A DNA stretch of 64,000 nt from an uncultured Chlorobiaceae bacterium (GCA_964471945.1 CAYYIJ010000001.1:48168-112167), one strand, 5' to 3'. Shown: positions 1-62,427, numbered from the stretch's first letter. The notes: generated from the letters alone by a model not told the origin. A program made the numbers and translations.

Positions 1-708
1 AAACTGCACATTGTCCATTGCCCAGAAATACCAGTTTGCCAGTTCGCTGAAAAATCTTTTGTTGAGCTCTTTGGTATCAAGTGTTTTCTGCCATGCGTTG
101 TGCAGCTCAACAAAGTCTGTGAACTGAAATTTATCTTTGAGTTCATCAAACGAAAGGTCAAACAAAATTTCAATGTGGGCTCTGTGCGGGTTTGCAATGT
201 TGATGTCTTTAATCAAGGTAACTTTTTCCAATACGTCCTTGTTTGTGCCACGCTTGCTTTCTCGGCGGTTAATCATTGATAAGGTGAGGAACTTTCCATA
301 ACGGAAAAATACCATCACGGGCATATCAAATAATCTGTTTATCAAGCGAGTAATATCTGAGAGTCGTCCTCGTGGGTAATCATTTTGTTTAAGCTCAACT
401 GCAAAAAACAGATACGATTGAATAAGGTCTGTGTCAATTGTATTAAAAAGCCCATCCCCAGATTTTATCTCATCATCGGTCAACTGGAAAATCAACTCGG
501 CAGTTTTAATCTCATCAAACCTTGACTGGTCAACACCTCGTTCGTCTGCCCGTCTCTTTAACGAATCAAAATTAATCTTGGTTTTCTTTTTACTTTGGTA
601 ACCGAGAACATTCAGGAGTACCAAACAATTGGATTCAACATTTCCTTTTGAAAACGCTGTGAGAGCTTCTTGGATCAGCTCTCGGTGTCGCACACCATCC
701 GTTTTCAT
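1..708 (-). CDS. Partial CDS, N-terminal 236 aa, continuing past the left edge. PD-(D/E)XK-type N-terminal domain resembling MmeI/YeeA-family Type IIG RM or DISARM DrmMI-like methyltransferase N-termini.
   Basis: Reverse-strand frame is open from the ATG (rc of 706-708) to position 1, checked codon by codon. ATGA overlap with the stop of the DUF1016 gene implies translational coupling. Motifs: GDGLFNTIDTD...LFFAVELK (D...ExK), then VMVFFRYGKFLTL. Assignment to a Type IIG/methylase family is inference from recalled MmeI N-terminal layout. Confidence 0.5.
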   Translation of the reverse strand, partial: MKTDGVRHRELIQEALTAFSKGNVESNCLVLLNVLGYQSKKKTKINFDSLKRRADERGVDQSRFDEIKTAELIFQLTDDEIKSGDGLFNTIDTDLIQSYLFFAVELKQNDYPRGRLSDITRLINRLFDMPVMVFFRYGKFLTLSMINRRESKRGTNKDVLEKVTLIKDINIANPHRAHIEILFDLSFDELKDKFQFTDFVELHNAWQKTLDTKELNKRFFSELANWYFWAMDNVQF

Positions 709-1775
709 TTTTCGAATCTCTCCTTTGCCGCAATGACTGCCTTATGGAGTTTTTCTTCGAGAAGTTTCTTCGGCGGCAAACCGGTCAGGTATTGCGCCAC
801 TCGGATATTTCCTTTATTGAGCATCAGGAGTTCAATGTGCTCATCTGATTTGTCAGCGCAGAGTATTAAACCAACGGGTGATTCTTCTCCGTTAGCTCGT
901 TCATACTTGTCAAGCCAGTTCAGATACAATTCCATCTGCGATTTATAAGCGGCTTTGAATTTGCCTAACTTCAAATCGATGACAACCAACCTGCGGAGTT
1001 TTCGGTGGTAGAAGAGAAGGTCGATGTAATAATCTTCATTATCAACAGTGATGCGTCTTTGTCTTGCTAAGAAAGCGAAATCGGTTCCTAGTTCAATAAT
1101 GAATCTTTGTAACTCAGAAACGATTGCAGATTCTAAATCCTTTTCGCTGTATGTATCTTTTAGTCCAAGAAAATCAAGAAAGTACGGGTCACGGAACACG
1201 AGGTCGGGAGTGAGTTTATTACCATCTCGAAGAGATTTCAATTCTTGTTTGATGAGCCTGTCGGGCTTCTTCGAGATTGCCGTGCGTTCGTAGAGCATAC
1301 TCGATATTTTGTCACGCAGAGTGCGAACACTCCATCGTTCGATACGGCACATTTCTGCGTAAAAATTACGTTGAAGATTATCTTCGAGTGCAATAAGCTC
1401 CACGAAGTGGCTCCAGCCCAATTGTTGCGACAGTGTCGCAACAATCTTAGAGCGTGGAAATTTTTCAGCAAATGTCACCATCCGTGTCAATGCACTGTAA
1501 GTAAATCCTTTTCCATATTCGTTTGTCAATTGTGCAGACAATGTCTGCAATATCTGTTTCCCGTATTCTGCCCTCTGTTCACCGAGGGTGCCCTTAAGAA
1601 TTCTTGTGCCGATTTGCCAGTACAACATGACAAGCGTAGCGTTAACTGTTTGAATGACCTGCGACCGAGCAGTCTCAATAAGCGAACGAATCTCCCCAAA
1701 TAATTTTTGCGTTGCTTGTTCTGGCTTTGCAGGCTGAGATTTGGTAATCCTTTTAAAGTTTTTTCTTTCCCTCAT
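705..1775 (-). CDS. DUF1016 / YhcG-family PD-(D/E)XK nuclease.
   Basis: 356 aa. N-terminal LYWQIGTRIL region and C-terminal YIDLLFYHRKLRRLVVIDLKLGKF (D...ELK-like) are typical of YhcG/DUF1016, which are frequently embedded in RM/defence loci. Confidence 0.8.
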   Translation of the reverse strand: MRERKNFKRITKSQPAKPEQATQKLFGEIRSLIETARSQVIQTVNATLVMLYWQIGTRILKGTLGEQRAEYGKQILQTLSAQLTNEYGKGFTYSALTRMVTFAEKFPRSKIVATLSQQLGWSHFVELIALEDNLQRNFYAEMCRIERWSVRTLRDKISSMLYERTAISKKPDRLIKQELKSLRDGNKLTPDLVFRDPYFLDFLGLKDTYSEKDLESAIVSELQRFIIELGTDFAFLARQRRITVDNEDYYIDLLFYHRKLRRLVVIDLKLGKFKAAYKSQMELYLNWLDKYERANGEESPVGLILCADKSDEHIELLMLNKGNIRVAQYLTGLPPKKLLEEKLHKAVIAAKERFEK

Positions 1776-1793
1776 TTCTTTTTTTCCCTATTA

Positions 1794-4700
1794 CTATTTG
1801 ATAATTAGCCAAGTAATCAGTTCAAAGTCGTCTTCAACCTTGGGTAACTGGTCTTCGTCAATCAATCTTCCACCTCTGCCCTCTAATTGCATTTCATTTC
1901 GTCTGTCAAGCAAAGATGCAATATTGCTCACTGCCTTTTGCATCATACCAGAATACAAATCCATTTTCTTACCCTCGTCAGTTTCTTCATTAAATAATCT
2001 ACACAATTCTTCCAAATATTCTTTCCTGCCTGAGCATAAAAGTCGGAACATTTCTAAGATTTGTTTTGGGTGTGTAAAACTAAAACGCACATCACCGTTG
2101 TTTCGTACATACACGAGATAATATGGTTGCAATGGATTTACCTTTTCAGTTGCTTTAGCATCTTCTTTTTGTTTCAAACAAAATATAACTCCTGGCTGCA
2201 ATACATCTTTCGCTTTTTCTGTAAGGTTTAAGCTCTCAACTTCTTTTGATGTAAGTGCATATATCCCAAAAAGTGCATCGTCCAATTTATCTTTGTTCTC
2301 TTGTAGATAATTAATCAGGTCAATACGAAAATCATCCAATGTAAATTCACTCAACGAGGGAATATTTTCGTTGAGGTCATCCATTTCTAATACTTCATCT
2401 TTCATCCTTAACAACTGTTTATCACGATAACGTAATTCTGTTTCTACCAAATCTTTTATTTCATCAGGATTTAATACATTATCTTCATGCGTTGCGGTTA
2501 CATCTACCAGTGCCATCCGTGCCTCAACACGATATTTCAGTTTGATATATTTGTCTAAGTTTGGCGTAGGCCAAAAGTTTACCAAATGAATCTTATCGTT
2601 CAGCGAACCGATGCGGTCAATTCTACCAAATCGCTGAATTACTCTGACTGGATTCCAGTGAATGTCATAGTTAATAAGGTAATCGCAATCCTGTAAATTC
2701 TGTCCTTCACTTATGCAGTCTGTTGCTATCAAAATATCAATCTCACCTTCCTGAGGCATAGCTTCTTTTAATTTTTCTCTTTGCTTGGCGATCGGGCAAA
2801 AGTTGGTCAGGATATGATTATACTCAGTGAGTTCCTTAAAACCTTTCGGTTGAAAATTTGTTCTATTACCACCCGTCCCACCAGTAACCATAGCGGTATG
2901 TAAATTTAATTCTTGCATTGCCCTATCAGCAATATTGTCATAAAGGTACGATGCTGTATCAGCGAAGGCAGTAAATATCAAAACCTTTTTATTGAATTTA
3001 CCGTCACGATTTTTGGTCGGGTTGTTAGCTTTTTGTGAAATAAGGTATCTCAGTTTCTTAAGTTTTGCATCACGGTCAGGAGTTACTGCTTCTGCATTAT
3101 CACGTAATAAGCTCAACTGTTCTTTGTCTTTTTTTAAGTCCTTAAGCCAGTTGTCAAGATGCAAATGTTTTAATTCGTATCTAAGTTTCTTACCAACTGT
3201 GTAAAGCTCATTGTATTCTTCGTCTTCTTCTCCTTCCATTTTTGTATCATCTAAATCAAATTCAGAGTCTTCGGCTTTCTTTTTTAGGTAATCTTTTATT
3301 TTTATTTCAAGTGCTTCGATTTTACTTACACATCGTTGCATTGTAATTTCAAATGATTCAACTGAACTTTCCAACCGTTTCAAAAAATTTACTTTCATCA
3401 TTCCAATCAAAAACTCTTCACGGTCTTCCTGCTTAAACACAGCCGCACCGATTGATTGTGCTTTCTCAGAATAATGTTGCTTAAATTCTTGTTTTACATA
3501 AGAAGATGGTTTGAATAATGATAATTCATATTTTTCGATTTCATCTTGTAATCTATCATAAGAAAGGAAGCTACCCTTAAGGTCAATGTCGCTGTAAATA
3601 GGGTGTGGTTTCCCTCTGTCAGGGAATAAACCAATTTTTTCCATCTCGTGGCGATAATATTTCTTTATGTGATTACGTGAGCGAGATATTGTAAGTTCAT
3701 CGAGTAACTTGAACAATGCACTATCTAATTTGTCAAGAAGTTCCTTGCTGCTGATTGCTTCTCTTTGTTTTTGCTTTGCCCAATGAGTGAATTGAGTTTG
3801 TGCAAGTTTTAAAGTTTCAGAAAAACTTTTTATTTGCAGTGTTTCTGTGAAAGCTTTATCATTATCATCTGTGATGATGCGTATTTGATTACGTAAATCC
3901 TTAAGGTTAGTGTTTACTGGTGTTGCTGAAAGTAATAATACTTTTGTTTTAACACCCGAACCAATAATATCCTGTAGTAATCTTTCGTAACGGCTCTTTC
4001 GTATAATTTTTTCATCTTCATCCTTTTTTCCTTTTGTGTCGTTACGAAAATTATGGCTTTCATCAATTACGACTAAATCGAAAGCTCCCCAGTTAAACTC
4101 TGCTAACTTTATCCCGTCTGCATCTGAAGTACCGGTAATCCGACTTAAATCTGTATGATATAATACTGTATATGAAAAGCGGTCTTTAGTGAAAGGATTT
4201 AATATATTCCCCTTGTGTGCTTGATATACTGTCCAATTGTCTTTTAACTTTTTCGGACAAATCACTAATACACGGAAGTTCTTAAGTTCAAAATATTTGA
4301 TAATTGCAAGTGCTTCATAGGTTTTACCTAAGCCAACACTATCGGCAATGATACAGCCATTGTGTCGATTAATTTTATTTATCGCTGACTTAACAGCATC
4401 CTTTTGAAAATCGAACAATGTGTTCCAGATTTGAGTATCCTTAAGCGTTCCACCTTCAGTTAGTAGGTCTGCTGATTTTTGCTTTTCTATAAAATCGTAG
4501 AAAAGATGATAAAGAGTTTTGTAATAGATAAATTCAGGTGAATAATCATGATATAGTTGTTTAAGATATTGAAGTACTTCATCTTTCACATCTTCTACCT
4601 CAACACCATCCATTTCATTGTTCCATAACTTAGTGAACCATAATCTTAAATCTTCTCTATCACGTTTGCTGTCTACTTCCAGATTCAGTTCGATGTTTTT

Positions 4701-5171
4701 ATAGGTTGATAATCCCAGTCCCCTAACAGTGAAGTTTGAACTTCCTATAATAGCATCCTCTATACCGTTATTGTTGATATGATAGAGTTTGCCATGAAGA
4801 AAATTAACTTTTTTTACTGAACGAATTTCAACTTTCTTTTCAATCCAATCCGAACATTCTCTTGCAATACGGTTTTGCTCAAGTACATTCACAAGTTCAA
4901 TATTTTCATCTTGAATCATGAATGCTTTCTTAGATGCTTTAGATGGGTCGAGGGATTTGGTAAAACTTGGGTCACCATATAAAAACCGAAGTGAATTGAT
5001 TTGTCCCAATTCATTTTTCAATGCTTCATAAGCATAAATAGTGAAAAATGCAGAAACGACAGACATGTCACTCCCCGGTTTGATTTTTCCCTTTAAGAAA
5101 TCACCTACAGAACCATGCTGATGATTGTCTTTTATGGAAGATAAATTTCTTTCTCTTGATGTATCAGCCAT
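1794..5171 (-). CDS. Fusion protein: N-terminal PLD-like (HKD) nuclease domain + SNF2/Rad54-family helicase + ~300-aa uncharacterized C-terminal domain.
   Basis: 1125 aa. HKD-like motif LHGKLYHINNNGIEDAIIGSSNFT near the N-terminus. SNF2 motifs: SVGLGKT (I), VVIDESHNFRN (II), LLLSATPVNTNLKDL (III), ILIATDCISEGQNLQ...HWNPVRVIQRFGRIDRIGS (V/VI). Confidence 0.85.
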   Translation of the reverse strand: MADTSRERNLSSIKDNHQHGSVGDFLKGKIKPGSDMSVVSAFFTIYAYEALKNELGQINSLRFLYGDPSFTKSLDPSKASKKAFMIQDENIELVNVLEQNRIARECSDWIEKKVEIRSVKKVNFLHGKLYHINNNGIEDAIIGSSNFTVRGLGLSTYKNIELNLEVDSKRDREDLRLWFTKLWNNEMDGVEVEDVKDEVLQYLKQLYHDYSPEFIYYKTLYHLFYDFIEKQKSADLLTEGGTLKDTQIWNTLFDFQKDAVKSAINKINRHNGCIIADSVGLGKTYEALAIIKYFELKNFRVLVICPKKLKDNWTVYQAHKGNILNPFTKDRFSYTVLYHTDLSRITGTSDADGIKLAEFNWGAFDLVVIDESHNFRNDTKGKKDEDEKIIRKSRYERLLQDIIGSGVKTKVLLLSATPVNTNLKDLRNQIRIITDDNDKAFTETLQIKSFSETLKLAQTQFTHWAKQKQREAISSKELLDKLDSALFKLLDELTISRSRNHIKKYYRHEMEKIGLFPDRGKPHPIYSDIDLKGSFLSYDRLQDEIEKYELSLFKPSSYVKQEFKQHYSEKAQSIGAAVFKQEDREEFLIGMMKVNFLKRLESSVESFEITMQRCVSKIEALEIKIKDYLKKKAEDSEFDLDDTKMEGEEDEEYNELYTVGKKLRYELKHLHLDNWLKDLKKDKEQLSLLRDNAEAVTPDRDAKLKKLRYLISQKANNPTKNRDGKFNKKVLIFTAFADTASYLYDNIADRAMQELNLHTAMVTGGTGGNRTNFQPKGFKELTEYNHILTNFCPIAKQREKLKEAMPQEGEIDILIATDCISEGQNLQDCDYLINYDIHWNPVRVIQRFGRIDRIGSLNDKIHLVNFWPTPNLDKYIKLKYRVEARMALVDVTATHEDNVLNPDEIKDLVETELRYRDKQLLRMKDEVLEMDDLNENIPSLSEFTLDDFRIDLINYLQENKDKLDDALFGIYALTSKEVESLNLTEKAKDVLQPGVIFCLKQKEDAKATEKVNPLQPYYLVYVRNNGDVRFSFTHPKQILEMFRLLCSGRKEYLEELCRLFNEETDEGKKMDLYSGMMQKAVSNIASLLDRRNEMQLEGRGGRLIDEDQLPKVEDDFELITWLIIK

Positions 5172-5515
5172 TTTAGATTTACTATTATGTCAATACTGTT
5201 ATGGATTAAACTTTCAATATACCATCTCAACAAGCCGTCATAAATGTAAGGGAAAAAGAAAGAAGAAGCAAAATCATCCTCAAGGAAACGTGACTCCCAA
5301 ATTAAGACTACCCCCTACATCTTTTTTAGCTTTTTCTTAGAGAGCATGCTTATACCTTTGTACCTTCAAGAGCCGGTGTAATGGAGTAACACTAGGCATA
5401 CCCCCACCAATAAAAAATCCTAACAATCTACTGTTAGGGTTAACCTAATCCACCAGAAAAATCCATCCTCCCTAATAGAAATATAAAAATTATTCCCCTT
5501 AAGTTGATTAATGTT

Positions 5516-6360
5516 TCAATTTAAAGGTATAGAAATCTTGTTGACCGCATTATGAAGCTCACTCGCTGCAAGATGAGAATAAACCTCAGTAACCTTCACA
5601 CTGGAATGCCCAAGAAGCTTCTGCACCTCATAAATGCTCACCCCATCCTGTACAAGCCAGCTTGCAAAAGTATGTCTCAAGCTGTGAAAGTGGAGTTTAT
5701 CGTTTAATCCTGCAACGCTTACATACTCTTTAAATTTATGAGTAACAAAACCCTCTTTGACCTTAACATCGCTAAGCGGTAGTGTTCGCCTTTTGCCCTG
5801 TTTTGTCTTAAACGTTGGATTGCTCTTAACCTGAATTAGCTTTCGCTGCAAATCAACATCCTGCCAGCGTAAGTTGATAATTTCTCCACGCCTCATTCCT
5901 GTCAATACTGCAAATATTACTATTTCCTTAAGCCAGTTTTCTTTGATAATCAAAATGAGTTTTTGAAAGTCTTCTTTGGTGAAAAATGCAGGAGGCAATT
6001 CAGGTGTGTGTACAAGCTGTACGTTGCTGAACGGATTGCTTTCAATATGCCGTGGAGTAATATCAGTGAGAAGGCAATCTCCTGCGACCGTGTGAAGGTG
6101 TCTCAATCCAATTACAAAAATATCTACTGTTGGCTTTGCATAGGTTGCCCTTGCGTAAGAAAGATACTCTTGTGTGAGTTGTGTAAGGGTTTTTGTTTTT
6201 GGCTTCGACTATCATAACGCCTTGAACTCTGTCAGCTTTTTCAGCGCTTCATACTTGAGAGAACATTTTGAGGATTTCCAGCGCTTCTTACCTTGTTCAT
6301 CAGAATAACCAATATAATAAATGCTATTACGCTTCCAGAGGTAAAACTTTGGTGAGAGAA
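5516..6360 (-). pseudogene. Tyrosine recombinase/integrase, apparently frameshifted and N-terminally degraded.
   Basis: Catalytic C-terminal domain is in one frame (LRHTFASWLVQDGVSIYEVQKLLGHSSVKVTEVYSHL; R..HxxR..Y). It is extendable only to an ATG at 6212-6214. A short arm-binding-like N-terminal segment (KFYLWKRNSIYYIGYSDEQGKKRWKSSKCSLKYEALKKL) lies in a different frame at ~6210-6360, with no ATG, and ends in a stop that overlaps the other frame. Confidence 0.55.
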
Positions 6361-6373
6361 CCTATCTTTTTAG

Positions 6374-6448
6374 TCGGAACGGCGGGATTTGAACCCGCGA
6401 CCCCTTGCACCCCAAGCAAGTGCGCTAGCCGGGCTGCGCCACGTTCCG
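6374..6448 (-). tRNA. tRNA-Pro (anticodon GGG).
   Basis: 75-nt cloverleaf read on the minus strand: acceptor CGGAACG/CGTTCCG, anticodon stem CTTGC/GCAAG with loop TTGGGGT (G37), T-arm GCGGG-TTCAAAT-CCCGC, discriminator A, no encoded CCA. Confidence 0.85.
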
Positions 6449-6475
6449 TCTGGATTGCTGATATAAAAAAACTAC

Positions 6476-6886
6476 TCAGGTCAGCTTCACCAATAGTTCT
6501 TCAAGAAATCTTTTAATCTCAACCATATCATTCCTCAAACGATTCTCAGTCGTTTTTTGTTGTTGTGTCGGCGTTGAGGGTGCCGTTGTGGTTACACCTT
6601 CGTGTATCAACTCTAATTGTTCACCTGTTTCACTATCGGGCATATAATCTTTGAGAACCTGTTTAGCTCCTTCAATCGTATACCGTTCTTCACGCAGTAA
6701 TCTTTTTATGAACAAAATGAGTTTAATATCCTTGCTCGTATATATACGGTTACCCGCTCTATTTTTTGCAGGTCCAAGTTGCTCAAATTCCGATTCCCAG
6801 TACCGGAGTACATATTGTTCAAGGTCAGCAATTTTACTAACCTCACTGATTGAATAATACAGCTTCTTTATTCCTAATTGTTTCAT
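6476..6886 (-). CDS. MerR-family transcriptional regulator.
   Basis: N-terminal HTH YYSISEVSKIADLEQYVLRYWE is typical of MerR. 136 aa. Confidence 0.7.
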   Translation of the reverse strand: MKQLGIKKLYYSISEVSKIADLEQYVLRYWESEFEQLGPAKNRAGNRIYTSKDIKLILFIKRLLREERYTIEGAKQVLKDYMPDSETGEQLELIHEGVTTTAPSTPTQQQKTTENRLRNDMVEIKRFLEELLVKLT

Positions 6887-7037
6887 ATTAAATCCATTTG
6901 AGGATAAAATTTGATATTAATCATACCAAACATACGGAAATTCTCAATTAAAGGCAACATCCGTTCATTTGGAAATTCATGTAACCGTGTATCTAAATAT
7001 TTTTTGCTTTAACGATATAAAACGATTATATTTGACC

Positions 7038-7787
7038 ATGACAAAGAAAGAACTCAGACAGCTATTACAACAATACAAGCGTGGTAAGCTTAGCGATCAA
7101 CAAATAGTAGAGAAGATATCCTCACTAAAATTTGAATCACTTAGTTTTGCTACAATAGATCATCATCGTCAACTTAGACAGGGATTCCCGGAGGTTATTT
7201 TGTGTCAAGGTAAAACACCCGATCAAGTTGCTGAGATCGCCTCGAGGATTCATAAACGTTCACAGCCACTATTAGCAACTCGCGCAACACCTGATCATTA
7301 TAAAGCGGTGAAAAAGGAAATCCGTCAGAGCCATTACCATAAGTTTGCTCGTACAATTACAGCGAATGAACCAAAAAAGCAGTTACTGAACCGTGGAACA
7401 ATTCTCGTAATCACGGCTGGAACATCCGACATTCCAGTGGCTGAGGAAGCTTTTATTACTTCTCAAATGCTCGGCAATCCAGTTGAAAGATTATATGATG
7501 TTGGAGTTGCTGGTATTCACCGCTTGCTATCCCAAAGCGAAAAACTTATGAAAGCAAGCGTAATAATTGTAGTTGCAGGAATGGAGGGTGCCCTTCCAAG
7601 TGTGGTTGGTGGTTTAGTGGATGTACCAGTTATTGCTGTTCCAACTTCAATCGGTTATGGTGCAAGTTTTCAAGGTGTCGCAGCGTTGCTCGGGATGTTG
7701 AACACGTGTGCAAGCGGTGTTACTGTTGTGAATATTGATAATGGATTTGGGGCTGGGTTTGCAGCAAGTTTGATGAACAAAAGATAG
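7038..7787 (+). CDS. larB: LarB-like (PurE-related) nickel-pincer nucleotide biosynthesis carboxylase/hydrolase.
   Basis: Diagnostic IDHHRQLRQGFPEVI motif plus a PurE-like core VVAGMEGALPSVVGGL..PVIAVPTSIGYG. The likely start is the internal Met (MTKKELRQLL), not the ORF-track start at 6969. Confidence 0.8.
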   Translation: MTKKELRQLLQQYKRGKLSDQQIVEKISSLKFESLSFATIDHHRQLRQGFPEVILCQGKTPDQVAEIASRIHKRSQPLLATRATPDHYKAVKKEIRQSHYHKFARTITANEPKKQLLNRGTILVITAGTSDIPVAEEAFITSQMLGNPVERLYDVGVAGIHRLLSQSEKLMKASVIIVVAGMEGALPSVVGGLVDVPVIAVPTSIGYGASFQGVAALLGMLNTCASGVTVVNIDNGFGAGFAASLMNKR

Positions 7788-7820
7788 CCGAATTTAAATA
7801 AATAAATCGATAATTTAATT

Positions 7821-8960
7821 ATGCGTTTCTCTACAAAAGCAATTCACGCAGGCCAGAGGCCTGATCCAACTACCGGGGCAGTAATGACACCGGTTTATTT
7901 AACTTCGACGTATGTTCAAAAAGAAATCGGAAAACATAGCGGCTATGTTTATTCTCGTATTGCCAATCCGACACGGACTGCACTTGAGCAAAACATTGCC
8001 GCGCTGGAAAATGGGAAGCATGGTGTTGCATTCGGGTCTGGCATGGCAGCGATCGATGCAATCTTTCGATCGCTGAAACCATGCGACCATGTAATCGTTT
8101 CACACAATGTTTATGGCGGTACATACCGGATTGCAAAAAATATACTCGAAGATTTTCGGTTACAATTCGATTTCATCGACACAACAAATCTGAAATTGGT
8201 CGAACAGTCCATCCGTCAAGAAACAAGAATGATTTTCGTTGAGAGTCCAACAAATCCAACGATGGAAATAACTGATCTAAGTGCCATTGCAAATATCGCA
8301 AAGCGATATCGCCTTATCTCCGTATGCGACAACACATTTGCAACACCTTACTTACAACAGCCGCTTGAATATGGAATCGACATCGTGGTTCATAGTCTTA
8401 CTAAATATCTCAACGGTCACAGCGACATGCTCGGTGGGTTGGTTGTTACCGATGATGCTAAGATTGCAGAAATGTTGCGTTTTATCCAAAAATCTACCGG
8501 TGGAATATTGAGTTCTTTCGAAGCATGGCTTTGTTTGAGAGGAATTAAAACCTTACCTATTCGGATGGAACAACACAGTAAAAATGCAATGGCCATTGCA
8601 CAGTGGCTCTCTAAGCAAAGGAAGATCAAGCGTGTTCTATATCCGGGGCTTCCTTCACATCCCCAGCATAAACTGGCTAAAAAGCAAATGAAAAAATTTG
8701 GCGGAATGATTTCTTTTGATTTAGGCAGCTTCAAAAAGACAAAGAAATTTTTGAAAAAAGTACAACTTTGTGCTCTCGCTGAAAGTTTGGGCGGCGTAGA
8801 GACTCTAATATCACATCCTGCAACAATGACACATGCAGCGGTTCAAAAAGATCAAAGACAGAGGATTGGTATTACTGATGGACTAATACGTATATCAGTT
8901 GGCTTGGAAGATATCGATGATATAACCACGGATATTCAACGAGCTTTAAAAAACATTTAA
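7821..8960 (+). CDS. Cys/Met-metabolism PLP-dependent enzyme (cystathionine gamma-synthase/lyase or methionine gamma-lyase family).
   Basis: 379 aa. N-terminal STKAIHAGQ...TGAVMTPVYLTSTY and overall trans-sulfuration family architecture. Confidence 0.85.
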   Translation: MRFSTKAIHAGQRPDPTTGAVMTPVYLTSTYVQKEIGKHSGYVYSRIANPTRTALEQNIAALENGKHGVAFGSGMAAIDAIFRSLKPCDHVIVSHNVYGGTYRIAKNILEDFRLQFDFIDTTNLKLVEQSIRQETRMIFVESPTNPTMEITDLSAIANIAKRYRLISVCDNTFATPYLQQPLEYGIDIVVHSLTKYLNGHSDMLGGLVVTDDAKIAEMLRFIQKSTGGILSSFEAWLCLRGIKTLPIRMEQHSKNAMAIAQWLSKQRKIKRVLYPGLPSHPQHKLAKKQMKKFGGMISFDLGSFKKTKKFLKKVQLCALAESLGGVETLISHPATMTHAAVQKDQRQRIGITDGLIRISVGLEDIDDITTDIQRALKNI

Positions 8961-9085
8961 TTTGGTTGCTAATAACATTTATTTTATTTAAATTATATCC
9001 AGCTTATTAATAATCATCTTTTCTTGCGTTTATCATACAGGTGAAATATCGGAGCACTTTATCTTTCTTGGAGTAAAATTGTAAT

Positions 9086-9556
9086 ATGAAGATTAGTGAT
9101 ATTCTCGACGAAAAATTAGTCGTCAGCAACCTCCCGGGAAGCTCGAAAGAGGACGTAATCGATGGGTTGGTTGAAATCGTTGGTCAATCACCGAAAGTTT
9201 TAAATATTGATAAGGTTCGCACCGCTATATTTGAAAGAGAGAAAATCATGTCAACTGGCGTGGGCAATGGATTTGCCATTCCTCATGGAAAAACCGATGC
9301 AGTTACTGACATCGTTGCAGCTTTCGGTATCACAGCAGAACCGATCCAATATCAGTCACTCGATGAAAAACCTGTGCGTCTTATTTTTCTTCTAGTGGGC
9401 AAGGACAATCTTGTCGGTCCACATATTAAACTCCTCAGTCGTATTTCAAGACTAATGAACAAAGAGGAATTTCGTAATAAACTATTGGAAACCACTACAC
9501 CGCAAGAAATTATCGCAACATTCAAACAAGAGGAAGCGAATTATTCCGAGATGTAA
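9086..9556 (+). CDS. PTS EIIA-type-2 (PtsN/EIIA-Ntr-like) regulatory protein.
   Basis: 156 aa. GVGNGFAIPHGKTD phosphorylatable-His motif. Confidence 0.65.
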   Translation: MKISDILDEKLVVSNLPGSSKEDVIDGLVEIVGQSPKVLNIDKVRTAIFEREKIMSTGVGNGFAIPHGKTDAVTDIVAAFGITAEPIQYQSLDEKPVRLIFLLVGKDNLVGPHIKLLSRISRLMNKEEFRNKLLETTTPQEIIATFKQEEANYSEM

Positions 9557-9620
9557 CATTTTGGTGTAATCTATCATCTTCCTTACCACAATATGTCATC
9601 CAATTTATTTTGAAGCTATT

Positions 9621-10907
9621 TTGAAGTTCAAATCAATCAAAGGTACACAGGATGTACTCCCCGATGATAGTTATCGTTGGCAGTTTGTTGAACAGAAAAT
9701 CCGCTCGGTAATGCATAGGTTCAACTACCGTGAAATTCGTACTCCAGTGTTCGAAGAAACAGCCTTATTTGCACGCGGTATTGGTGAATTAACAGATATC
9801 GTTAAGAAAGAAATGTACACTTTTCAGGATAGAGGTGGAACTATGCTGACATTGAAACCTGAAATGACCGCAGCGGTTATGCGTTCCTATCTCCAACATA
9901 ACATGGGTGAACGAAAACCATTAATTAAAGTATATTATATCGCACCGATGTTCCGCCAGGAAAGACCGCAAGCCGGACGCCTTAGGCAATTTCACCAATT
10001 TGGTGCCGAAGCTATTGGCGGAAGCAATCCTTTTGTCGATGCCGAAATTATAGCATTGTCTGCCGAAGTTTACCGGGTACTCGAGGTAAAAAACTTTCAG
10101 ATTAAAATTAACTCGGTCGGTTGTTTAAATTGCCGCCCGATTTATAAAGAAATTCTGAAGAAAAATCTACATAGTGTTTTTGAGCACTTATCAGAAGATA
10201 GCAAGCGGCGATTCGAGCAAAATCCGTTACGAATACTTGACTCGAAAGATGAAAATGATCAGAAGCTTACTAAGAATGTTCCATTGATCAAGGATTATTT
10301 ATGCAAAGAATGTTCAGCACATTTCATCGAACTTCAATCAACTTTAAGATCATTGAATATTGAATTTGAAATCGATGGCAGAATTGTTCGGGGTTTAGAT
10401 TATTACACTAAAACAGCATTCGAAATCATCAGTAAAGACTTGGGATCACAGGATGCATTGGTTGGTGGTGGTCGATACGATCTTTTATTAAAAGAACTTG
10501 GTGGCAAACCAACACCATCTGTCGGATTTGCGGCTGGTGTAGAACGTCTTCTGCTAACGATGGAGAAACAGCAATTATTTGCCGGAGTAAATAACAAGCC
10601 GAAGGTTTTTATTGCTGCGGTTGATGAAGAGGGAAGAAGATACGCAATGGTACAGGCGATCATGTTGCGACGCAATAACATTCCGTGCGAAGTCGATTTG
10701 CTTGGGCGAAGCCTAAAATCACAAATGCGAGAAGCAGACCGGCAAGAGGTAGAATTTGTTATTATCATCGGCGGTCATGAGCTTGAAAAAGAGATTGTCA
10801 TTATTAAGAATATGAAAAATGGAATACAAACAAACCTTGCGGCGAAGGATTTAATTGGCTATTTTCAAGAAACGGAGGAAAAAATTGAAACGGGGGGAAT
10901 CCGTTAA
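9621..10907 (+). CDS. hisS: Histidine--tRNA ligase.
   Basis: 428 aa. Class II aaRS motifs and HisRS-typical N-terminus KGTQDVLPDDSYRWQFVEQKIRSVMHRFNYREIRTPVFE, plus an anticodon-binding C-terminal domain. Confidence 0.9.
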   Translation: MKFKSIKGTQDVLPDDSYRWQFVEQKIRSVMHRFNYREIRTPVFEETALFARGIGELTDIVKKEMYTFQDRGGTMLTLKPEMTAAVMRSYLQHNMGERKPLIKVYYIAPMFRQERPQAGRLRQFHQFGAEAIGGSNPFVDAEIIALSAEVYRVLEVKNFQIKINSVGCLNCRPIYKEILKKNLHSVFEHLSEDSKRRFEQNPLRILDSKDENDQKLTKNVPLIKDYLCKECSAHFIELQSTLRSLNIEFEIDGRIVRGLDYYTKTAFEIISKDLGSQDALVGGGRYDLLLKELGGKPTPSVGFAAGVERLLLTMEKQQLFAGVNNKPKVFIAAVDEEGRRYAMVQAIMLRRNNIPCEVDLLGRSLKSQMREADRQEVEFVIIIGGHELEKEIVIIKNMKNGIQTNLAAKDLIGYFQETEEKIETGGIR

Positions 10908-62016: not shown

Positions 62017-62117
62017 TTAGTTATTGGGGTCAAGTCCTATGCAACGGGAAACTTCCAAACCCCGTCAGGTCCGGAAGGAAGCAGCGGTACGAAGCTATTT
62101 TCGTGTGACGTGGGGAA
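62017..62117 (+). ncRNA. ffs: Signal recognition particle RNA (small/4.5S type).
   Basis: Contains the near-invariant domain IV sequence GUCAGGUCCGGAAGGAAGCAGC. The 5' ggggtcaagtcc and 3' ggaagcttgacc can pair as a closing helix. Confidence 0.7.
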
Positions 62118-62427
62118 GCTTGACCTCTTTCTTTTCATTATTGCAATCCAACCGAGAATTTCTTATTTTATATCTGTCAAATCTATAAATTAAACGAATT
62201 TTTAATTATTTTAATGTTTAGTAATATAGCAACAGGTCAGTGGTTAACGATGTTGGGTATGATAATACAACGAATTTATCTCCCCCAAAAGGGGATTTTA
62301 CCCATTTCGTTCCAGGGCTTCGCCGCGGCATCGATCCGTTGGCGCCGTTGTACTAATGAATTAATGGATCTTCACCGGGTACTCCAAAAAATATCTGGGA
62401 ACGATTCGAAGGGACGAAGTAATAACA

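Follow-up and report, generated by a model that had tools for sequence, protein, structure and literature searches.

The left end of the 64-kb window (the whole stretch of DNA from an uncultured Chlorobiaceae bacterium analyzed here) carries three genes that we interpret, with a probability of roughly 0.6, as a two-component, ATP-dependent, Type I-like restriction-modification module residing on a fixed tRNA island. All features listed in an earlier sequence-only reading of this DNA were found on the minus strand, with the same coordinates. The three genes are co-directional and tightly packed, as that reading had described. The first (positions 1794 to 5171) encodes a protein of 1,125 amino acids in which a PLD (HKD) nuclease is fused to an SNF2 helicase (PLD-SNF2), the second (positions 705 to 1775) encodes a YhcG/DUF1016 PD-(D/E)XK nuclease of 356 amino acids, and the third (positions 1 to 708) comprises the first 236 codons of a methylase gene with a DUF4391-like N-terminal domain. 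PLD-SNF2 and YhcG are separated by a spacer of 18 nucleotides (nt), and the YhcG and methylase open reading frames (ORFs) overlap by 4 nt (ATGA), as seen directly in the sequence; Pfam matches bear out the named domains.

The methylase ORF stays open over all 236 codons and extends off the window. Two public Logan contigs from the same samples, L001 and L002, carry the exact YhcG protein, and the 760 nt compared between L001 and the window are 100% identical. In L001 (positions 5690 to 9775), the ORF runs on to 1,361 amino acids, confirming that the module continues past the left edge, and all three long ORFs (1,125, 356, and 1,361 amino acids) are intact. The readable sequence ends 180 bp (L001) and ∼100 bp (L002) past the methylase stop codon, and scanning metagenome contigs for exact matches to the end of L001 gave none. 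At the other side of the operon, a terminator-like hairpin (positions 5419 to 5438, minus strand; a weak consensus match only) lies between PLD-SNF2 and an integrase relic; the promoter/terminator scan yielded no more sites of either kind than expected from shuffled sequence.

The tRNA-Pro-linked island

The right boundary of the island is a tRNA-Pro(GGG) gene (positions 6373 to 6448, minus strand; predicted with ARAGORN and scoring 62.9 bits with the Rfam tRNA model), the 3′ end of which faces the island. Directly 3′ of it lies a tyrosine integrase pseudogene (positions 5516 to 6361, minus strand), recognized by its Phage_integrase match and by frame reading. The residual ORF (positions 5516 to 6106, 196 amino acids) matches Phage_integrase in two stretches (2e-30) and retains the catalytic R, HxxR, H, and Y motifs; matches to XerA/XerC/XerD-like models were far under the cutoffs. 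The integrase frame runs upstream to position 6361, right after the tRNA, and contains tandem in-frame stop codons (TGA TAG) at positions 6214 to 6209, leaving an N-terminal fragment (positions 6361 to 6215) without a start codon. Because the integrase is a pseudogene, we regard the island as now fixed.

The closest available relative, L087 (LarB 91% identical), has the same MerR gene and an identical tRNA-Pro(GGG), and its similarity to the window ends exactly at the tRNA 3′ end, with unrelated genes beyond. Independent Logan assemblies break within this tRNA gene. The GC content is mosaic, with 34.8% for PLD-SNF2 and 42.9% for YhcG against 38.5% (standard deviation, 1.7) for the backbone. 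No copy of the tRNA 3′ end that would mark an att repeat was present in the last 250 bp of L001, and the island extends to the left past both the window and L001. The tandem stop codons and the divergence of L087 at the tRNA support the assignment of the locus as a tRNA-integrated accessory island with a degenerate tyrosine integrase, as had been proposed from the sequence, and the different gene content at this tRNA in L087 upholds its accessory nature.

PLD-SNF2 and its partner methylase

PLD-SNF2 contains PLDc_2 (1.6e-8), SNF2-rel_dom (2.3e-8), ResIII, and Helicase_C (2.9e-15) domains within a single ORF, so the proposed fusion of a PLD nuclease with an SNF2 helicase is real; DUF3427, which was also searched for, was not found. 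The protein matches the PADLOC model C3a139 (HKD+Snf2) over its full length (7.6e-132). It has one HKD motif (H126-x-K128 ... G143-S-S-N146) and the helicase motifs Walker A (GLGKT, residues 280 to 284), DESH (residues 370 to 373), and motif VI (QRFGRIDRIG, residues 846 to 855), and the HKD, Walker A, DExH, and motif VI residues were invariant among 20 homologues from many phyla. A sequence search against the PDB returned only generic SNF2/RapA matches (∼1e-9), and the AF2 model (20 sequences) reached a pLDDT of 59, which is too poor for a fold search or for comparison with SauUSI and MtsD.

The fusion is not unusual: more than 8,000 full-length homologues (∼58% identity) were detected, and the family occurs in at least 597 species-level genomes, from bacteria and an archaeon, as well as on 117 plasmids, including those of Listeria, Enterococcus, Bacillus, Escherichia, and Lactococcus. 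The window locus is an ordinary member of this widespread family. Neighboring genes in relatives encode OLD/AAA_15-type ATPases, AlbA_2/HATPase_c_4 proteins, GmrSD, Fic, AbiL, and integrases, and an ATPase and integrases surround the gene pair in the closest relative (77% identity). A chromatin-remodeling or repair SNF2 protein with housekeeping synteny was therefore ruled out, because the neighbors are methylases, integrases, and defense-type genes in all phyla. No experimental characterization of any family member was found in the searchable literature, consistent with what had been noted for this arrangement.

PLD-SNF2 is almost always paired with a DUF4391-domain gene, which accompanied it in 76 of the 77 informative species-level loci. 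This domain was fused to an Eco57I-type methylase directly downstream in 63 loci (median gap, 71 bp), was encoded by a stand-alone gene downstream of PLD-SNF2 in 11, and belonged to a fused DUF4391-methylase gene elsewhere in the locus in 2. When four genome loci with the stand-alone gene were scanned with Pfam, three had a Type III-like N6_N4 methylase following DUF4391, and a Res gene came next in both of those whose following ORF was scanned. By annotation, a Providencia plasmid shows the same order (helicase, DUF4391, methylase, and DEAD/DEAH helicase).

The partner in the window is the methylase, which matches Eco57I (2.2e-26) and N6_Mtase (5.8e-12) and has the motif order X (FYTP), I (DPACGSGAF), and IV (NPPY) of the gamma class. 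Its N-terminal domain is followed by a helical region with FYTP, an HUH/Y1 insert, motif I, the Eco57I core, and a C-terminal specificity domain (C-terminal region, ∼210 amino acids). The partial ORF had been predicted to belong to an Eco57I/MmeI-type adenine methylase with a specificity domain, and motifs I and IV in L001 bear this out. The match to MmeI_Mtase (4.4e-5) was under the cutoff; among PADLOC models, REase_MTase_IIG (5.5e-55) was matched far better than DrmMI (1.1e-19, partial), which places the protein in the broad Eco57I class but not with DrmMI in particular. A sequence search against the PDB gave no match. Just past the present stop codon lies a relic methylase C-terminal tail, which we relate to specificity swapping.

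The methylase N-terminal domain scored 22.4 bits against Pfam DUF4391 (PF14335), under the cutoff of 29.9. Alignment of the fused domain with stand-alone DUF4391 proteins by hhalign gave a probability of 94% (E value, 1.4e-7; 154 columns), and by this profile comparison it is a distant DUF4391 homologue. The AF2 model of the part encoded at positions 1 to 708 had a pLDDT of 88.7, and Foldseek returned no PDB match, which counts against a nuclease at this end of the protein. The sequence-only reading had taken the domain for a PD-(D/E)XK endonuclease of the MmeI/YeeA type, but only 13 of 73 relatives have all residues of the D..ExK triad, and we therefore read the domain as a probable adaptor rather than a conserved nuclease, a role suggested by gene linkage only. 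The missing conserved triad fits the proposal of Morgan et al., who suggested an adaptor role for MmeI homologues that lack PD-ExK and lie beside a helicase (PMC2731913).

If the triad were functional, the methylase might instead be a self-sufficient, MmeI-like Type IIG enzyme, with PLD-SNF2 and YhcG as independent defense genes that share the island. The window protein itself has D92/D94, E105, and K107 all present and may thus have an active N-terminal nuclease, a point that speaks against our preferred interpretation. Across the family, however, position E105 is E or D in 66% and position K107 is K in 37% of the proteins, whereas catalytic residues would be near-invariant, and the authors of the Lactococcus lactis study identified no restriction domain in their methylase homologue (PMC6098607). 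The adjacency to PLD-SNF2 in 76 of 77 loci and the separate DUF4391 genes next to PLD-SNF2 speak for a domain that works on behalf of the helicase-nuclease. Together with the Foldseek result, this makes a self-sufficient Type IIG enzyme unlikely.

Between motifs X and I, at about residues 560 to 735, the methylase contains an inserted, conserved HUH/Y1 domain (REP_Tyr_transpos, 4.7e-18; Y1_Tnp, 2.9e-7). These two matches, the labels "transposase" or "RayT" that some sources give to methylase homologues, and the free-standing Y1 genes at the corresponding position in two related loci (L035 and L063) could indicate that the locus is mainly a transposon, with an IS200/RAYT-type transposase hitchhiking in the methylase, and not a defense operon. 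We consider this highly improbable: the insert forms no separate gene but is in frame and, in 33 of 34 cases, sits inside the methylase fold in the interval from motif X to motif I, with both flanks conserved, and in other family members a DUF559/Vsr endonuclease occupies the same insertion site. The occurrence of Vsr at the site of HUH/Y1 points to a slot for plug-in effectors. The HUH survey that was checked makes no mention of methylase fusions.

YhcG matches DUF1016_N (1.3e-47, 161.8 bits) and YhcG_C (1.8e-48, 164.8 bits), both over the cutoff, and the PADLOC candidate PDC-S02 (1.3e-133). These domains and the 4-nt overlap confirm the description of a DUF1016 PD-(D/E)XK gene that overlaps the methylase gene. 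Its position between the two core genes is not unusual; the order PLD-SNF2, YhcG, and methylase was found again in eight unrelated lineages. In related loci, YhcG lies between the core genes in 8 of 63 cases and after them in 2, and it is absent from the rest; it is an optional passenger or accessory gene of the module.

Comparison with DISARM and other known systems

Class 1 DISARM was the system to which the locus had been assigned from the sequence, and an SNF2 helicase, a PLD nuclease domain, and an Eco57I-type adenine methylase are indeed present in both. The rest of that assignment did not stand. DrmA and DrmB (DUF1998), which define DISARM, are absent from the readable island (from the tRNA to 180 bp past the methylase stop codon) and from the loci of 80 relatives. 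DrmC is a separate PLD gene in DISARM, whereas PLD forms the N terminus of the SNF2 protein here. PLD-SNF2 reached 154.8 bits with the DrmD model NF038317 (cutoff, 610) and 97.3 bits with NF038318 (cutoff, 950), in matches that cover only parts of the protein (four and two stretches, respectively, best in the helicase C region), and the DrmMI match was likewise partial and under the cutoff.

The locus could still form the right portion of a system of the class 1 DISARM type, in which PLD-SNF2 replaces DrmC and DrmD, the methylase replaces DrmMI, and DrmA/DrmB lie just past the left edge. The overlap in domain content and the partial DrmD and DrmMI matches agree with this, the readable sequence stops 180 bp left of the methylase stop codon, and on Bacillus cereus plasmids, a 40%-identical PLD-SNF2, DUF4391, Mod, and Res are directly downstream of annotated DrmA and a DUF1998 protein. 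In that arrangement, however, DrmA/B lie upstream of PLD-SNF2, a position occupied here by the integrase relic and the tRNA. Moreover, phmmer searches with B. cereus DrmA and DrmB gave 0 matches in any ORF of 84 loci (up to 10 kb of flank each), no Drm family was among the 25 most frequent PADLOC/Pfam families in 122 adjacent ORFs and the 61 largest neighboring ORFs, and the closest relative has its ATPase and integrases instead of DrmA/B. With the DrmD score at 154.8 bits against a cutoff of 610, we judge a DISARM-type system to be very unlikely.

Loci with the same described architecture have been reported, namely, L. lactis pLd8 orf33/orf34 and "Cj0031-homologue with upstream PLD+SNF CDS" loci, in which a PLD, SNF2, and helicase-C protein lies beside a Type IIG-like methylase without a recognizable restriction domain (PMC6098607; PMC9881135). 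A comparison of this architecture with class 1 DISARM was made in 2018 (PMC6098607), and a 2023 listing (PMC9881135, Table 3) also includes a locus in which a DUF1016 CDS immediately precedes such a methylase. Both reports are annotation only and do not refer to DUF4391 or the HUH insert, and the likeness drawn here is one of described architecture.

MANTIS/Gao_RL (BREX-related type 2) systems resemble the module proposed here in being methylase directed, with an N-terminal HKD/PLD domain, an SF2/SNF2-like ATPase, and a dimer active site (bioRxiv 10.64898/2026.09.23.753747; PMC12839542). The helicase region of PLD-SNF2 is collinear with NF042964 (phospholipD_antiphage; residues 363 to 886 against model positions 359 to 823 of 895, 8.2e-39), at 133.6 bits far under the cutoff of 1,100, and in sequence terms it is of a MANTIS-related architecture but not of the same family. 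Neither the DUF499 AAA+ ATPase (MtsA) nor MtsB was found in the readable island or among the most frequent neighbor families, and the methylase is of the alpha class in MANTIS but of the gamma class (Eco57I/MmeI-like) here, where DUF4391 is present instead. MtsD is a dimeric PLD and SF2 effector that is targeted via its methylase; its cleavage has not been reconstituted in vitro, and the MANTIS analogy rests on genetics (bioRxiv 10.64898/2026.09.23.753747).

Like the locus described here, Bacillus subtilis YeeA (DnmA), YeeB, and YeeC combine an MmeI-like methylase lacking a working nuclease motif with a helicase and a putative nuclease, and they have been proposed to form a Type I-like system (PMC2731913). 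By description, the B. subtilis helicase and nuclease each have a gene of their own, located downstream of the methylase gene, and YeeC is GIY-YIG-like (PMC2731913). YeeA/DnmA methylates DNA and affects gene expression, and no restriction was observed in transformation assays (PMC7261158). This precedent raises the alternative that the locus is no longer, or never was, a defense system but serves an epigenetic or DNA-maintenance function or is merely left over, inert, on a dead island. The island is old, since its integrase has decayed, and the relic methylase tail attests to a past rearrangement, both of which would suit such a reading. Against it, the three long ORFs are intact and their catalytic motifs invariant, the family moves between phyla and onto plasmids and is found in defense-type neighborhoods, and it is not obvious what regulatory purpose an HKD nuclease linked to a motor would serve; we thus consider a nondefense role improbable.

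Type I, Type ISP, and SauUSI enzymes share the motor-nuclease design with PLD-SNF2, and in Type I and Type ISP the motor-nuclease is joined to a methylase/specificity module. The nucleases of Type I HsdR and of Type ISP enzymes, however, are of the PD-(D/E)XK or Mrr kind, and their helicases belong to another family. SauUSI has a PLD and SF2 dimer architecture, as proposed here, but consists of a single protein and, as a Type IV enzyme, is directed against modified DNA. MmeI-type Type IIG/IIL enzymes share the gamma-class N6A methylase and the C-terminal specificity domain, but their N-terminal PD-ExK motif is not conserved in the family described here.

Proposed mechanism and significance

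In the two-component restriction-modification module that we favor, the methylase would be the modification and recognition subunit, with its own specificity domain. Judging from its analogues in the MmeI family, YeeA/DnmA, and BREX PglX, it is likely to methylate a short asymmetric site on one strand, leaving it hemimethylated. The DUF4391-like domain may dock the methylase to PLD-SNF2, the putative restriction subunit. Because each chain has a single HKD motif, one active site would require two PLD-SNF2 chains, just as two HKD chains come together in Nuc, BfiI, SauUSI, and MtsD. The SNF2 motor is expected to use ATP, move along the DNA from an unmodified site, and then cut. YhcG would be an additional, optional nuclease such as is carried along in restriction-modification operons, and the HUH/Y1 domain might be a second, cis-acting add-on of the methylase.

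A broader reading is possible but on the whole doubtful. PLD-SNF2 and DUF4391 might together define a separate and very widespread class of ATP-dependent restriction systems. DUF4391 would be its universal coupler, linking the motor-nuclease to any available methylase: a gamma-class Type IIG-like enzyme to which it is fused, or a Type III Mod/Res pair next to which it stands alone. In the methylase, the loop from motif X to motif I might then be a slot for second nucleases, here filled by HUH/Y1 as a RAYT-like single-strand DNA endonuclease domain taken over for defense. If true, this would be a new use of the HUH transposase fold.

Methylation-based motor-nuclease defenses (Type I/III/ISP, BREX, DISARM, and MANTIS) are under active study, and the PLD-SNF2/methylase pair is at least as widespread as some of these systems, yet no name for it was found. 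The linkage of DUF4391 provides a concrete hypothesis for a domain of unknown function, and a modular "second nuclease" slot is suggested by the inserts of HUH/Y1 and Vsr. With only two proteins and without a loader ATPase, the pair would be the simplest form of these defenses and might thus be a useful minimal system in which to model the handover of an unmodified site from a methylase to a PLD motor-nuclease.

Organization of the locus at tRNA-Pro

All features listed in the sequence-only reading are present, on the minus strand: a tRNA-Pro(GGG) gene at 6373-6448 (Rfam match), a broken tyrosine integrase directly 3' of it, and, separated from the integrase relic by a 344-bp spacer, three co-directional genes. 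The integrase is a pseudogene: its frame (6361 to 5516) lacks an upstream start codon and is interrupted by tandem stops (TGA TAG at 6214-6209), and the residual open reading frame (ORF) of 196 amino acids (5516-6106; Phage_integrase, 2e-30) retains R, HxxR, H, and Y of the catalytic site. The operon itself is intact. It encodes a PLD(HKD)-SNF2 fusion of 1125 amino acids (PLD-SNF2; 1794-5171) and, 18 nt further on, a YhcG/DUF1016 nuclease of 356 amino acids (705-1775), both with strong HMM support, followed by a partial methylase ORF that starts at 708, in an ATGA overlap with yhcG, and leaves the window at base 1. Its base composition is mosaic, with GC contents of 34.8% for PLD-SNF2, 42.9% for YhcG, and 38.6% for the methylase (34.3% in the specificity region), against a backbone of 38.5% (standard deviation, 1.7). 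Elsewhere in the window, unrelated to the defense locus, lies a bacterial small SRP RNA (62028-62128, plus strand; 66.5 bits).

Searching for the exact YhcG protein identified L001 and L002, public contigs that derive from the same samples (SRR11582139 and SRR11582140, as assembled by Logan); L001 is 100% identical to the window across the 760 nt compared. In these contigs the cut ORF is complete and encodes 1361 amino acids, comprising an N-terminal DUF4391-like domain, a helical stretch that closes with FYTP (motif X), an insert of ∼180 amino acids with similarity to REP-associated tyrosine transposases (NF047646, 4.7e-18; Y1_Tnp, 2.9e-7), and, downstream of it, motif I (DPACGSGAF), an Eco57I core (2.2e-26) with NPPY, and a C-terminal specificity region. 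The predicted continuation of the ORF into an N6-adenine methylase was thus borne out by the Eco57I core and both motifs; the protein is a gamma-class methylase with its own specificity domain, and PADLOC places it closest to the Type IIG enzyme-methylase class (5.5e-55). Just past the methylase stop, a 48-codon ORF ending in ALDNEIDRMVYKLYGLTEDEIKIVEG (L001:9741-9887) aligns with the very ends of the C-termini of 41 homologous methylases (E values down to 5e-9). It is the relic of another methylase C-terminus, left behind when the specificity region was replaced, and the match is evidence of that swap.

The closest host relative found (GCA_030019075.1; LarB 91% identical) shares the MerR gene with the window, as well as an identical tRNA-Pro(GGG), and diverges from it exactly past the tRNA 3' end, where it encodes three unrelated proteins, none of them with a Pfam match. 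The MerR-tRNA arrangement is wholly absent from more distant relatives. In addition, independent Logan assemblies from two runs end within the 3' half of tRNA-Pro (window 6397-6410; ends of contigs L001, L085, and L086), which could reflect either a tRNA-end repeat at the far island boundary or the coexistence of strains with and without the island. Taken together, the divergence of the relative at the tRNA, the assembly breaks, the decayed integrase, and the uneven GC content support the view that the locus is an accessory island no longer able to excise. The relative also carries another restriction-modification pair (N6_N4_Mtase+SNase and RE_MjaI; L087:4631-6513, in the contig from that genome) between larB and a Cys/Met-metabolism gene, which adjoin in the window.

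Pairing of PLD-SNF2 with DUF4391

The PLD-SNF2 fusion forms a very large and well-conserved family, with more than 8000 members (∼58% full-length identity from Alphaproteobacteria to Poribacteria), at least 597 loci among genomes sampled once per species (an archaeon among these), and representatives on 117 PLSDB plasmids. It has a single HKD motif, and the Walker A, DExH, and motif VI residues are invariant. ORFs were called in the best 80 of the at least 597 loci and searched with the window proteins. A DUF4391-like::Eco57I methylase is the next same-strand gene in 63 of these 80 (median gap, 71 bp), and a stand-alone DUF4391 gene (∼250 amino acids) lies next to PLD-SNF2 in 11; the fused gene is elsewhere in the locus in 2, downstream sequence is missing in 3, and neither form is present in 1. 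PLD-SNF2 is therefore paired with a DUF4391 domain in 76/77 informative loci, a near-obligate association. The 11 stand-alone loci are more distant (42 to 45% identity; Firmicutes, Methanobrevibacter, and others). Those scanned with Pfam gave DUF4391 matches of 1e-60 to 1e-66; a Type III Mod-like methylase follows in three of four, and a Type III Res gene comes next in both of the loci whose following ORF was scanned. The same order, annotated by PGAP as "helicase-related protein," "DUF4391 domain-containing protein," methyltransferase, and DEAD/DEAH helicase, is found on plasmids. Profile-profile comparison of the fused and free DUF4391 forms (94% probability; E value, 1.4e-7) indicates that they are homologous.

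The sequence-only reading had taken D..LFFAVELK in the N-terminal domain for a PD-(D/E)XK motif. The residues are there in the window protein (D92/D94, E105, and K107), but the full D..ExK triad is complete in only 13 of 73 family members, position 105 being E or D in 66% and position 107 being K in 37%. Invariant positions are instead F101, L106, R121, N124, P130, R149, V159, and a PHRAH motif. Across the family the domain is not a conserved nuclease, although a restriction-endonuclease fold may lie in its ancestry. As the DUF4391-like domain is constantly tied to PLD-SNF2, whether fused or free, the simplest reading makes it the link between methylase and motor-nuclease. Such coupling has been proposed for helicase-adjacent MmeI homologues without PD-ExK (Morgan et al. 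2009; PMC2731913).

The RAYT-like HUH/Y1 domain, in frame at methylase residues ∼560 to 735 (L001:7350-7900, left of the window edge), recurs in 37 of the best 120 methylase homologues. In 33 of 34 cases it separates motif X from motif I, lengthening that gap from a median of 69 to ∼304 amino acids. The HUH motif (MPNHVH), NlPHW, HSWKS, WMHESYDH, and the YIxxNP tyrosine are kept in at least 90% of the aligned inserts. Other homologues carry a DUF559/Vsr-like endonuclease in the same gap (P0006, residues 554 to 659; P0106, residues 544 to 647), and two loci have a free-standing Y1 gene in the intergenic position, which suggests that the motif X-I gap is a slot for second, alternative nuclease domains. 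No account of the HUH/Y1 insert was found in the literature. A DUF1016 gene lies between the core genes in 8 of the 63 loci and after both in 2, the remainder having none; the intercalated lineages are unrelated (Desulfuromonadales, Akkermansiaceae, Thermotogaceae, Chitinophagales, Comamonas, and others). It is missing from the closest relative locus (77% identity) and, in the window, differs in GC content from PLD-SNF2 (42.9% versus 34.8%). YhcG is, by its behavior, an optional passenger or an accessory nuclease. Within or beside the core pair, other loci have OLD/AAA_15-type ATPases, AlbA_2/HATPase_c_4, GmrSD, or Fic genes.

Relation to DISARM and other described systems

The locus had been likened to class 1 DISARM, a reading that did not hold. 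DrmA and DrmB (DUF1998) are absent from the stretch that runs from tRNA-Pro through the methylase gene, Bacillus cereus DrmA/DrmB queries (phmmer) matched no ORF of 84 loci, neither is among the most frequent Pfam/PADLOC families (122 adjacent ORFs; 61 largest neighboring ORFs), and the helicase scores 154.8 bits against the DrmD model, far below its cutoff of 610. The readable sequence ends 180 bp past the methylase stop, and a DISARM-type system with DrmA/DrmB further left has a small probability. A link to DISARM does exist on B. cereus plasmids such as NZ_AP022875.1 (L092:4131-17864), in which annotated DrmA and a DUF1998 protein stand directly upstream of a block of PLD-SNF2 (40% identical), DUF4391, a Mod methyltransferase, and a Res DEAD/DEAH helicase. 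In that hybrid, however, DrmA/B sit upstream of PLD-SNF2, where the window has the integrase relic and the tRNA, and the linkage was not seen in the 80 closer relatives. The hybrid implies that the PLD-SNF2/DUF4391 module can be combined with DISARM parts; the window locus itself, as far as its sequence could be read, is not DISARM.

MANTIS and BREX-related systems (PMC12839542) have a DUF499 loader and MtsB, both lacking here, and the MANTIS methylase is of a different class from the gamma-class enzyme. The same PLD-SNF2 and methylase architecture was described in 2018 on the Lactococcus lactis plasmid pLd8, whose authors noted a methylase without a restriction domain, proposed PLD-SNF2 as its supplier, and likened the pair to class 1 DISARM (PMC6098607). 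A 2023 survey of programmed inversions reported Cj0031-like Type II methylase genes preceded by a PLD+SNF coding sequence and one preceded by a DUF1016 coding sequence (PMC9881135), and the PADLOC model for the fusion derives from a 2018 list of genes beside Type III CRISPR loci (PMC6546367). YeeA/DnmA, with YeeB and YeeC, the other system to which the sequence-only reading had compared the locus, methylates GACGAG, with no restriction seen (PMC7261158). No experimental test of the PLD-SNF2/DUF4391-methylase family was found in the searchable literature.

Proposed mode of action

By analogy with the MmeI family, DnmA, and PglX, the methylase would mark an asymmetric site, probably on one strand, and may also recognize unmodified copies of that site, whereupon the DUF4391-like domain would recruit or license PLD-SNF2. 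Two PLD-SNF2 chains would then combine into a single HKD active site, power their translocation with ATP, and cleave the DNA, as modeled on SauUSI and MANTIS MtsD; restriction by MtsD requires its own methylase and both ATPases (bioRxiv 10.64898/2026.09.23.753747). The sequence-only reading was sound in its observations, the methylase included, and partly supported in its interpretation, DISARM excepted. The locus is best placed with ATP-dependent, methylation-based defense rather than DISARM and is an ordinary member of a widespread, unnamed two-gene restriction-like family. It is not exceptional in itself; it is the family, its DUF4391 coupler, and its nuclease slot that deserve experiments.
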